Source of the DNA: Escherichia phage 235Ecol030PP
Sequence record: PP355091.1
DNA length: 64,000 nt
Reading direction: 5' to 3' (one strand)
Of the stretch, positions 5,593 to 42,139 are shown piece after piece. The notes under the pieces were generated by a model. The model worked only from the letters and a program-made list of their open reading frames with translations. It had not been told where the DNA came from and ran no database searches. Made by a program: the position numbers and the translations under genes. How positions within the stretch are numbered: the first letter of the stretch is position 1; every line of letters begins with the position of its first letter.

Positions 5593-6090
5593 TTATGCAC
5601 AGCGAGCTTTGCTATAGTGTTTAATCCAACTTTCAGGAATGACTTTGTATGTTCCTAAAAATACCGCGTTGTACAGCTTAACACCATCTTCTACCCACTG
5701 ATCGGTAATGTATGCGCACATAGCACGAGTACGGTGTTTTTGAACAACCCCTTCCTCATCTTCAGTAAATTCAAACTCATAAGGAGCAATGAACTTGATA
5801 GCTTGACCAAGTTTCCACTTAAAGTCTACACCTACATGCGAAGTATCAATCGTTTCAATTCCTTTAGCGGGAACAGCTTTCAAAAACGCAGATTCAAGAA
5901 ATTTCGCGCGAACATAACCAAACTGAGGTTTAGACTTTCCATCTTTAGGAATGATACGCACTTTTACTTCAGAATCTTCATCTTTAACGCCGTGTTTAAG
6001 CTGAATGCTTACAATTTCGACCAATTTTCCTGCTGCTTTAGAACGGGATTTATCAGATACACGAGCAATTTCACCAATATTAATAATCAT
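5593..6090 (-). CDS. hypothetical protein, 165 aa (paralog of 6167..6706)
   Basis: ORF; C-terminal block TDQWVEDGVKLYNAVF shared with neighbour. Confidence 0.65.
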   Translation of the reverse strand: MIINIGEIARVSDKSRSKAAGKLVEIVSIQLKHGVKDEDSEVKVRIIPKDGKSKPQFGYVRAKFLESAFLKAVPAKGIETIDTSHVGVDFKWKLGQAIKFIAPYEFEFTEDEEGVVQKHRTRAMCAYITDQWVEDGVKLYNAVFLGTYKVIPESWIKHYSKARCA

Positions 6091-6166
6091 AGTTATCTCT
6101 CACTTGTTAAAAAGATTTTATACTCCACGGGACCATTATACTCTGGTCCCAAGAGTTTGTAAACTA

Positions 6167-6706
6167 TTAATTCAAAATAGCTACCACTGCACTACGAGGT
6201 ACTACGCTAAAATCACCTGCATGAACAACGTTCAGAAGTTCAACACCATCTTCAATCCATTGGTCTGTTACCCAACCACAGACCGAAATAAATGGAGTCT
6301 TGATAGCTACCGCATGAGTTAGAAGGTCAGTAGGATCGCATTCTTGGAAGAGAATAAGCTCTGCTTCAAAGACTATAGTTTTAATTACTTCATCATTATC
6401 TAAGCGATGTGCTCGAATCACATAAGCTTTATTCTTATCATGCCAATTACTTTTTGAAAAACTTTTAACCACAAACTCGCCTTCACCAAAAACACTGGTC
6501 AATGCTTTATAACCCAAATTTAGTTCAGTAGTTTTAATTTCAGTTTCAACCAGTTTGTAGGTTTTGCCAATTTCAATAGCGGTAGTCATAGTAGGTTCCT
6601 TAATTTCCAGTGGTTTAACAGGGCATACATAAGTGCTTACAACATCAAAATCAATCAGTTTAGCTACCGGATTTGGTATGTATTCAGGATTATAATTAAA
6701 TTTCAT
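6167..6706 (-). CDS. hypothetical protein, 179 aa (paralog of 5593..6090)
   Basis: ORF; C-terminal block TDQWIEDGVELLNVVH shared with neighbour. Confidence 0.65.
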   Translation of the reverse strand: MKFNYNPEYIPNPVAKLIDFDVVSTYVCPVKPLEIKEPTMTTAIEIGKTYKLVETEIKTTELNLGYKALTSVFGEGEFVVKSFSKSNWHDKNKAYVIRAHRLDNDEVIKTIVFEAELILFQECDPTDLLTHAVAIKTPFISVCGWVTDQWIEDGVELLNVVHAGDFSVVPRSAVVAILN

Positions 6707-39771: not shown

Positions 39772-39801
39772 ATAATACCACGGTTTGAACTTGTTGTAAA
39801 C
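39772..39801 (-). promoter_or_regulatory. T4-type early promoter
   Basis: GTTTAC-18nt-TGGTATTAT. Confidence 0.6.
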
Positions 39802-39899
39802 AACTTTGTGAAAATTATTTTAGGGAATGATAAGAAGGGAACGATAGCTTAGAATGGTAATATACAGAATGTAAGAAAGAAAGGCCCAGAGGGCCCATC

Positions 39900-40223
39900 T
39901 TAGTCTTCTATGATATCTCTATCATATCCAAGTGAAATGAGAGTTTCTTTGAAGTGTTTAATGTTCTTTTGTCTAGAACCATTGATGAAAATGACTGGAT
40001 AACGAATGTTAAGAGATGTGAATCCAGCACGTTTAGCAAGAGATACAATCAGTGGACGATCATACTCAATCTTACCGTTATTTGTAAGAACTTTATAGAA
40101 AGTAAAAGGAGCATTGAGCTCCTTTAGAAGTTTTGTAACTGATTGACATCCAGGACAACGACCTACTTCTTCGGGGATGCCATAGATTTCAATCTTATTC
40201 TTTAAGTTCGAGTTTTGTTCCAC
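39900..40223 (-). CDS. nrdH: glutaredoxin/NrdH-like thioredoxin-fold protein; start codon uncertain (GTG shown, no in-frame ATG nearby)
   Basis: KIEIYGIPEE...CPGC redox motif; upstream in-frame extension looks like non-coding translation. Confidence 0.6.
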   Translation of the reverse strand: MEQNSNLKNKIEIYGIPEEVGRCPGCQSVTKLLKELNAPFTFYKVLTNNGKIEYDRPLIVSLAKRAGFTSLNIRYPVIFINGSRQKNIKHFKETLISLGYDRDIIED

Positions 40224-40506
40224 GAGAAATAATTCCTTGATAAGCCCAGTATGGCGGGTTAACAGAATCCTCACCAGAGTTTTCTTCAGGAAAATAAACC
40301 TGGATAACAAATCCAGATGCATCAAAGGTAAAATAAACCGTAGGCAGTTCACCTAACAATTCGGCACGAGCATTAATTTCTTCGAGATCTCGTTCACGTC
40401 CAGCCCAAAAACTAGGATTTAGACTACATTCGTAAAAATAATAGTCATTACCGAACATATCAAAACCATTCCAACTCTCTACTACATACCGCTCAAAACT
40501 AATCAT
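40195..40506 (-). CDS. hypothetical protein, 103 aa
   Basis: ORF whose stop lies 1 nt before the conserved start of the glutaredoxin fold. Confidence 0.55.
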   Translation of the reverse strand: MISFERYVVESWNGFDMFGNDYYFYECSLNPSFWAGRERDLEEINARAELLGELPTVYFTFDASGFVIQVYFPEENSGEDSVNPPYWAYQGIISRGTKLELKE

Positions 40507-40839: not shown

Positions 40840-41310
40840 TTAATCATGTTTCCACACCCCATCGGTATTTGACCAAAGTCGCTGATTATCTGATCCTCGC
40901 CACAGCTTTTTAGTCGGAAGATTTTTCTCATACTTCCCATCAATAATAACATCAACATATTTAAGCATTTCTAGTTGTTTAATATCTTCAAACTTATATC
41001 CTGTCCACAACCAAATGCTTTTATTTGGATAAAGATTTTTTACTGTTTGAACAATGCAATGAATAACATCTCGATTATCAGGATAGAGAGGGTCACCTCC
41101 GGTTATAGTCAATCCTTCTATATAATCATTATTCAAACATTCAATTAATTGTTCTAGTGTTTCACCAGTGAATGGAATACCATTTCTAGCATTCCATGTT
41201 GATTTATTATAACACCCTTCGCATTTATGCAAACAACCTGTAACGAAAAGAACTGTCCTGCATCCAGGGCCATTCACAAAGCAGCACGGGTATATTCTGT
41301 CATAATTCAT
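40840..41310 (-). CDS. nrdG: anaerobic RNR activating protein (radical SAM), 156 aa
   Basis: CxxxCxxC cluster (CLHKCEGCYN), size 156 aa. Confidence 0.85.
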   Translation of the reverse strand: MNYDRIYPCCFVNGPGCRTVLFVTGCLHKCEGCYNKSTWNARNGIPFTGETLEQLIECLNNDYIEGLTITGGDPLYPDNRDVIHCIVQTVKNLYPNKSIWLWTGYKFEDIKQLEMLKYVDVIIDGKYEKNLPTKKLWRGSDNQRLWSNTDGVWKHD

Positions 41311-42139
41311 TTATATATTTCCAATTATAGCCTTCAACACTTTTACGTTCGCCATTTAAACATTTTAAAATATTTCCTTTGCTAGAAATATTAAAATATT
41401 TTGCTGCGTCTGGTATATAATTAAATGTTTTTAAAAGAACACCATCTTTATATGCGCCAAATAAATTAAGAGTATATTTTTCTCGAAGACGTTGATGTTT
41501 CCTTTTCATAACCTCAGGATTTGCATACGCCAACCTCAATGAATTTCTATGTTTTTCTTTTACTTCAGGTTTTTGCATTGCTAACTTAGTTAGCCTGGAA
41601 ATTTTATTTCTAACTTCGTCAGTTTTCATTGCATTTGACAAATTTAATAAAGTTTTATTTCTAACTTCAGGTTTTTGCATTGCTAACTTAGTTAGTTCTC
41701 TATGTCTTTTTCTAAAATCGTCATCCTTCCATATATTTTTCGATAATTTTGACATAGAGCGGTGAAATAATTCCTTTTCACCGGAATACAATTTAAGAAT
41801 TTCATCCAATTCATCTGTATTAAATCTATCGGTATTCGAGTTTATCATTCTATGAAAGGCATAACACATTTTACTATTACTTGTTTTAGCTAAATAGTAA
41901 TGAGCTAACGCGTGGTCATAATATGACAAATTAACAATATTCCATTTATCTGTTTTATATTCAGGAAATATAGATTTGGGAAGCACGTGATGTGCTTCCG
42001 TTTTTCCTTTTATTTTAGGATTATTATAATTTTTTGTTATCAAATCAACATATGACAATAGTAAATCATTATTTTCTTCAAATATTAAAGATAATTTATC
42101 ATTCACAAAATCGCAAGGATAAAATCTATCATAATTCAT
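41300..42139 (-). CDS. HNH homing endonuclease (Mob-like), 279 aa, with NUMOD3 repeats
   Basis: AHHVLP...N...DHALAH HNH motif; duplicated LTKLAMQKPEV units; first 13 codons mimic the nrdG N-terminus. Confidence 0.75.
   Translation of the reverse strand: MNYDRFYPCDFVNDKLSLIFEENNDLLLSYVDLITKNYNNPKIKGKTEAHHVLPKSIFPEYKTDKWNIVNLSYYDHALAHYYLAKTSNSKMCYAFHRMINSNTDRFNTDELDEILKLYSGEKELFHRSMSKLSKNIWKDDDFRKRHRELTKLAMQKPEVRNKTLLNLSNAMKTDEVRNKISRLTKLAMQKPEVKEKHRNSLRLAYANPEVMKRKHQRLREKYTLNLFGAYKDGVLLKTFNYIPDAAKYFNISSKGNILKCLNGERKSVEGYNWKYINEL
41566..41700. repeat. direct repeat of ~27 nt within the HNH gene (NUMOD3 repeat units)
   Basis: aggtttttgcattgctaacttagttag occurs twice about 103 nt apart. Confidence 0.8.

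Follow-up and report, generated by a model that had tools for sequence, protein, structure and literature searches.

The glutaredoxin-like nrdH gene of a T4-like Escherichia phage is very probably translated from a GTG inside its upstream neighbour

The closest described counterpart of the gene studied here is nrdH of phage T4 (ORF 55.7, NP_049686), the core of which is about 97% identical to that of the NrdH encoded in the window, that is, the whole 64,000-nucleotide stretch of Escherichia phage 235Ecol030PP (PP355091.1) that we analysed. T4 nrdH was deposited as a 309-nt gene starting at GTG (VKQNKIEVYG...) in NC_000866 as well as in the older record Y00122, and the T4 record notes that its product 'has glutaredoxin activity'. 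The GTG start of nrdH is thus already known, having been annotated for T4 since the 1980s; among the 22 coding sequences checked in the 10-kb T4 neighbourhood, GTG starts are annotated for two. A literature search retrieved no experimental N-terminus or initiation-site map for T4 NrdH. The two phages share the CPGC motif, the GTG start, an AAGGA Shine-Dalgarno sequence and the location of the gene, which has 55.8 on one side and, on the other, the terminator and early promoter ahead of 55.6. Judged by its high core identity and identical genomic position, the predicted window protein is an orthologue of T4 NrdH (gp55.7). The junctions ahead of the two genes differ, however. T4 lacks the 103-aa gene that precedes nrdH in the window, and its GTG is intergenic, 2 nt past the 55.8 stop, with TAAGGA followed by a 6-nt spacer; moreover, its N-terminal tail is five residues shorter (VKQN-KIEV versus VEQNSNLKN-KIEI). 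The window-type junction is the commoner of the two (418 versus 212 records).

Two further systems are informative for the protein itself. The closest solved structure is that of the T4 glutaredoxin/thioredoxin NrdC (1ABA, 1AAZ; E = 1.5e-3), a distant paralogue of NrdH (phmmer 21.9 bits, residues 12-81) in which, as in NrdH, the thioredoxin fold runs from strand beta-1 ('KVYG' in NrdC) and a CxxC motif stands at the equivalent place. NrdC nevertheless carries CVYC rather than CPGC, and its ATG directly precedes beta-1, leaving no N-terminal tail. Since residue 3 of 1ABA aligned to residue 12 of NrdH, the fold of the latter is expected to start at about residue 10-11. Bacterial NrdH-redoxin, the electron donor of class Ib ribonucleotide reductase (E. 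coli NrdH), has the same gene name and a general glutaredoxin-like fold, but it is characterized by a CVQC motif and an nrdIEF context, whereas phage NrdH has CPGC and is encoded next to nrdD and nrdG of the class III reductase. The NCBIfam NrdH-redoxin model did not match phage NrdH, the sole NCBIfam match being to the YruB family, at 15 bits versus a cut-off of 88.6. By model, motif and gene context alike, phage NrdH falls outside the bacterial NrdH-redoxin family, and its name is a historical label only. The protein scored above the gathering threshold of the Pfam Glutaredoxin family (PF00462; 25.1 bits versus a cut-off of 22.9, residues 22-82) and matched phrog_22 'thioredoxin domain' (9.7e-16). 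The CxxC motif that follows beta-1 reads C23-P-G-C26, and both cysteines are invariant in an alignment of 14 genera. A single-sequence AlphaFold2 model of NrdH was too poor to use (mean pLDDT 44).

A preliminary description of this locus had pointed out that nrdH has no in-frame ATG near the core of its thioredoxin fold, and had proposed initiation either at a GTG or, through coupled reinitiation, at a non-AUG codon. The elements of the junction, all on the minus strand, are as follows.

39900..40223, minus strand: nrdH coding sequence, 107 codons plus TAA; T4-type NrdH, glutaredoxin-like, with a GTG start
40221..40223, minus strand: GTG initiation codon of nrdH, the sole canonical start from the fold core back to 40274
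40234..40238, minus strand: Shine-Dalgarno sequence AAGGA, followed by the 10-nt spacer ATTATTTCTC and then GTG
40195..40506, minus strand: upstream 103-aa gene (phrog_2749, RB69 ORF082c-like), identified as an open reading frame, by its PHROG match (3.8e-49) and by its annotation in relatives
40195..40223, minus strand: 29-nt overlap in which the upstream gene ends (RGTKLELKE*) and the N-terminal extension of NrdH is encoded (VEQNSNLKNK)
40191..40193, minus strand: ATT (Ile11), the alternative start of the preliminary description, judged to be an ordinary internal isoleucine codon
40320..40322, minus strand: closest in-frame ATG, with a weak Shine-Dalgarno sequence, judged not to be a start
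40146..40157, minus strand: CPGC active-site motif, Cys23 to Cys26, from the translation
39882..39896, minus strand: intrinsic terminator, hairpin GGGCCCTCTGGGCC plus T-run, 3 nt past the nrdH stop; annotated in phages e11/2 and WFL6982

Read on the minus strand, the lysine codon AAG of KIEIYG occupies 40196-40194 and ATT-GAA-ATC runs from 40193, and the translation (...KIEIYGIPEEVGRCPGCQ...DIIED*) ends at 39900. The minus-strand coordinates bear out that an in-frame ATG is missing near the core. The TAA of the 103-aa gene (40197-40195) is indeed separated from ATT-GAA-ATC by a single base (G, 40194), and the GTG lies exactly 30 nt upstream of ATT, as had been described. The frame is open back to 40352, and the only in-frame ATG in this stretch, at 40322, is 99 nt upstream of the GTG, 126 nt upstream of the lysine codon and 129 nt upstream of ATT; the ATG is therefore as distant as had been claimed, although the 110 nt quoted was approximate. 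The sequence leading to it, which had been described as overlapping the preceding gene, is indeed the 103-aa gene read in an alternative frame. The same 324-nt nrdH coding sequence is annotated in the window-type relatives whose records we inspected.

The window is Tequatrovirus (T4-like) DNA; over this region it shares 97-98% identity with many phages of that genus, and the gene order is nrdD, homing endonuclease, nrdG, 55.8, 103-aa gene, nrdH, terminator, 55.6. The terminator after nrdH closes a transcription unit comprising nrdD, nrdG, 55.8, the 103-aa gene and nrdH. The 103-aa gene occurs in about two thirds of the Tequatrovirus and Mosigvirus records, is absent from T4-type genomes and, where present, always directly precedes and overlaps nrdH; a search of Pfam and NCBIfam with its protein gave no match. 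About 80 nt past this strong terminator hairpin, at 39772-39800 (minus strand), lies a sigma-70-like promoter (TTTACA, 17-nt spacer, TATTAT, with an upstream TG) that matches the T4 'early promoter P2' ahead of 55.6. Between nrdD and nrdG, a 279-aa endonuclease-like reading frame (41300-42139, minus strand) had NUMOD-like matches below threshold; it is annotated as SegH-like in phage e11/2 and occupies the same place as T4 mobC. Its start, MNYDRFYPCDFVN, copies the N-terminus of NrdG, MNYDRIYPCCFVN (nrdG 40840-41310, minus strand), and the first ~40 nt of the two genes are about 80% identical from AATGAATTATGA. The sequences suggest that the 5' end of nrdG was duplicated at the site where the homing endonuclease inserted.

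Every in-frame NTG and ATN codon was scored for pairing between its upstream region and the 3' end of 16S rRNA. The GTG at 40223 is preceded by AAGGA (40238-40234) with a pairing energy of -5.4 kcal/mol and a spacer of 10 nt, which is close to the upper limit of common spacer lengths. ATT 40193 has essentially no Shine-Dalgarno sequence (-0.9 kcal/mol) and that of ATG 40322 is weak (-2.4 kcal/mol). CTG 40265 was the only in-frame candidate to score above the GTG (-5.8 kcal/mol), but its Shine-Dalgarno sequence is just 3 nt away, and CTG is not a normal start codon. Folding of the RNA around the nrdH start gave no structure beyond that of shuffled controls (z = 0.04), and no structure that would sequester the start was predicted. 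The gene thus has what is expected of GUG initiation, namely an in-frame GTG with a Shine-Dalgarno sequence at a workable distance, and we consider it very probable that nrdH is a conventional protein-coding gene whose translation begins with the GUG at 40223.

Whether the GTG is shared by relatives was assessed on about 60 loci from phage and IMG/VR collections, anchored on the codons for KIEIYG. At the homologous position, the GTG is present at six kinds of junction, namely those of the window (found in Tequatrovirus and Mosigvirus), of T4-type genomes, of Gaprivervirus (VR20), of JS98-type Dhakavirus, of Kanagawavirus (CIP9, KLB31) and of Mosugukvirus PM2. A Shine-Dalgarno sequence (AAGGA, AAGGAG or GAAGGTGG) precedes it in all six at 6-10 nt, the spacers of the lineages other than the window type being 6-9 nt. 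Across the lineages with an overlap, CAAGGA is invariant except in Kanagawavirus, which has GAAGGTGG. In the frame of the upstream gene, the codon that includes the first two bases of the GTG is CGT (Arg), TGT (Cys) or AGT (Ser), with NGT-G retained throughout; that NGT-G is kept while the upstream amino acid varies supports the GTG as the start of nrdH. Part of the conservation of the GTG and its Shine-Dalgarno sequence could also stem from the overlapping upstream protein (YQGIISRG). Furthermore, in-frame stops are found 4-5 codons upstream of the GTG in T4-type genomes (TAG TAA GGA ATA GTT GTG), two codons upstream in Gaprivervirus (TGA or TAA) and ten codons upstream in some Dhakavirus. 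Given how close these stops are, the GTG is the first canonical start in the T4-type and Gaprivervirus genomes; the start is thus conserved, and in these two groups an earlier one is impossible, as expected of a GUG-initiated gene.

The tail between the GTG and the core was also compared. In the T4-type genomes, where it is not overlapped, the only variants are CAA/CAG and AAT/AAC (L010, L058), which are synonymous in nrdH. In Mosigvirus (L017, L057) a change of AAT to AAC is silent in nrdH and turns the TAA of the upstream gene into CAA, so that the latter reads on to a TGA inside ATTGAA, the same TGA at which the upstream gene of Kanagawavirus stops. As supporting evidence, such silent-only changes from the GTG to the core would fit a translated tail, although the numbers are small and not decisive. 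One locus with ATG at the GTG position, that of phage vB_EcoM_005 (MK295203, L028 about 5984-6200), was considered as a case of GTG/ATG interchange and set aside as uninformative: the active site is deleted, and the nearest intact relatives have GTG. Its nrdH has lost 99 nt in frame, and with them RCPGC and about 33 residues (MDQKLTKIEIYGIPETVM-DDKPLIV...), and the genome is only 155 kb. Judging from these sequences, vB_EcoM_005 probably derives from a Dhakavirus that has undergone many deletions, and its NrdH is probably non-functional.

The recurrence of the junction also bears on the quality of the sequence. An artefact creating the apparent lack of an ATG had been named as one finding that would overturn the preliminary description. 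The 71-nt window-type junction is present in 418 independent phage records (at least 90% identity), and the second type, which has GTG as well, in T4 and 211 other records (212 in all). The same junction in hundreds of independent records excludes a sequencing artefact.

Initiation at ATT 40193, either de novo or by reinitiation after the upstream TAA, would give a protein beginning M-E-I-Y-G. E. coli infC is a known case of AUU initiation, which has also been reported for T4 gene 26*, and some features speak for ATT: a single nucleotide separates it from the upstream stop in the window, in Mosigvirus and Kanagawavirus it shares bases with the TGA of the upstream gene (ATTGA), and homologues that start with ATG do so at about its position. 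The proximity of stop and ATT is not a fixed trait, however, since the upstream gene ends with TAA in some lineages and with the TGA 6 nt further downstream in Mosigvirus and Kanagawavirus. In T4-type genomes no upstream gene ends at ATT at all; the 55.8 stop lies 14 nt upstream, and the GTG with its Shine-Dalgarno sequence at a 6-nt spacing is kept. Nor is the codon itself preserved as an AUU start with ribosome-binding determinants of its own would be: it is devoid of a Shine-Dalgarno sequence, as its pairing energy indicates, it has become ATC in three Dhakavirus-type loci that keep the GTG or its equivalent (L028, L040, L043), and genera with an ATG start have ATA or GTG at this position. 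The codons between the GTG and ATT, moreover, change only synonymously in the nrdH frame. Of the two starts put forward in the preliminary description, the GTG is thus favoured by its Shine-Dalgarno sequence, its conservation, the upstream stops of relatives and the T4 deposit, and reinitiation at ATT is very improbable.

A start further upstream, at ATG 40322 or another codon, would yield a protein of ~140 aa with a long N-terminal extension, and the nrdH frame of the window is indeed open to 40352. Yet the ATG has only its weak Shine-Dalgarno sequence, no depositor has annotated a start there, and all T4-type genomes, Gaprivervirus and some Dhakavirus have stops that close the frame 2-10 codons ahead of the GTG. 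These in-frame stops rule out the far-upstream ATG for the family, and for the window we give such a start practically no credence. There is also scarcely any likelihood that NrdH is made in part as a fusion to the 103-aa protein, through frameshifting or transcriptional slippage. The idea draws on Pectobacterium phage PM2 (NC_028940; L048/L053, 316-915), in which one 199-aa reading frame, annotated 'glutaredoxin', covers both genes. PM2 is a single genome, though, and an A7 run puts it one base off the conserved geometry, with a GTG-to-lysine spacing of 17 instead of 18 nt; with one more A in the run, the upstream gene would again end at its TAA and the GTG would be back in frame. With a one-base difference in a homopolymer, the simplest reading of the PM2 frame is a sequencing error or a recent indel, and from the sequence it is probably one or the other. 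The overlap in the window (GGAACAAAACTCGAACTTAAAGAATAAG) contains no slippery run, and T4 does without an upstream gene altogether. We likewise considered and rejected a +1 frameshift of the prfB kind out of the 103-aa gene, as no slippery codon precedes the TAA and T4 is without that gene.

For initiation at the GUG, we envisage that the 30S subunit would bind AAGGA at 40238-40234 and that the GUG lying 10 nt downstream would be read as fMet. This would yield a glutaredoxin-like protein of 107 aa, whose first 9-10 residues, (M)EQNSNLKN(K), would form a short variable tail before strand beta-1 (IEIY). More speculatively, ribosomes finishing the 103-aa gene, whose stop is 26 nt downstream of the GUG within the 29-nt overlap, may keep the site open or reinitiate; T4 manages without the upstream gene. 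A bolder proposal is that the buried GTG, the 29-nt overlap and the long spacer together form a coupling device tying NrdH to the 103-aa protein, with a joint role of the two in anaerobic deoxynucleotide synthesis. We regard this as unlikely, but if it were true, the single PM2 reading frame would be a 'Rosetta-stone' hint of a physical partnership between NrdH and the 103-aa protein.

The preliminary description implied that the start of nrdH is unusual, which our analysis does not support: nrdH behaves as a normal GUG-initiated gene. A GUG start with a Shine-Dalgarno sequence is routine and, in this neighbourhood, uncommon but unremarkable; the main value of the result lies in annotation quality. 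As nrdH has no ATG at its start, several deposited T4-like genomes misannotate it. In VR20 (NC_028894, L018 752-1000) it is annotated from an internal methionine after the CxxC motif (82 aa), and in JS98 (EF469154, L019 734-1000) from MRCPGC (88 aa), without beta-1. The record of ECp13 (PP274704, L058) has no nrdH coding sequence, and that of EcWhh-1 (MH791409, L067) gives nrdH only as a misc_feature, with no coding sequence.

Outside the lineages that use the GTG, nrdH has an ATG 0-3 codons before beta-1 in Jiaodavirus, Moonvirus, Gelderlandvirus, Tegunavirus, Krischvirus, Slopekvirus, Lazarusvirus and Bragavirus, and these homologues begin M(K)IEIYG. Seven of these genera (Jiaodavirus, Krischvirus, Tegunavirus, Bragavirus, Slopekvirus, Moonvirus and Gelderlandvirus) carry orthologues with 37-59% identity in which nrdH often also abuts a small upstream gene, with an ATGA overlap of stop and start in Jiaodavirus, Tegunavirus, Krischvirus and Bragavirus. 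Unlike in the window, however, the start in these seven is never a GTG set 29 nt deep within the upstream neighbour. At the N-terminus, ATG-ENSQLR-AKIYG of Karamvirus corresponds to GTG-ENQSLK-IEVYG of Kanagawavirus. The Karamvirus upstream gene has no detectable homology to the 103-aa gene of the window (E = 1.9), and its ATG can therefore be compared only via the N-terminal tail of NrdH. This tail varies in length; counted from the GTG up to KIE, it comprises 4 residues in T4 and 9 in the window, while several genera have 6. From this distribution we infer that the T-even clade may have lost an ancestral ATG and that its nrdH now starts instead at a GTG within the 3' end of its neighbour. 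The junction would thus provide a small worked example of a start codon migrating into the upstream gene.
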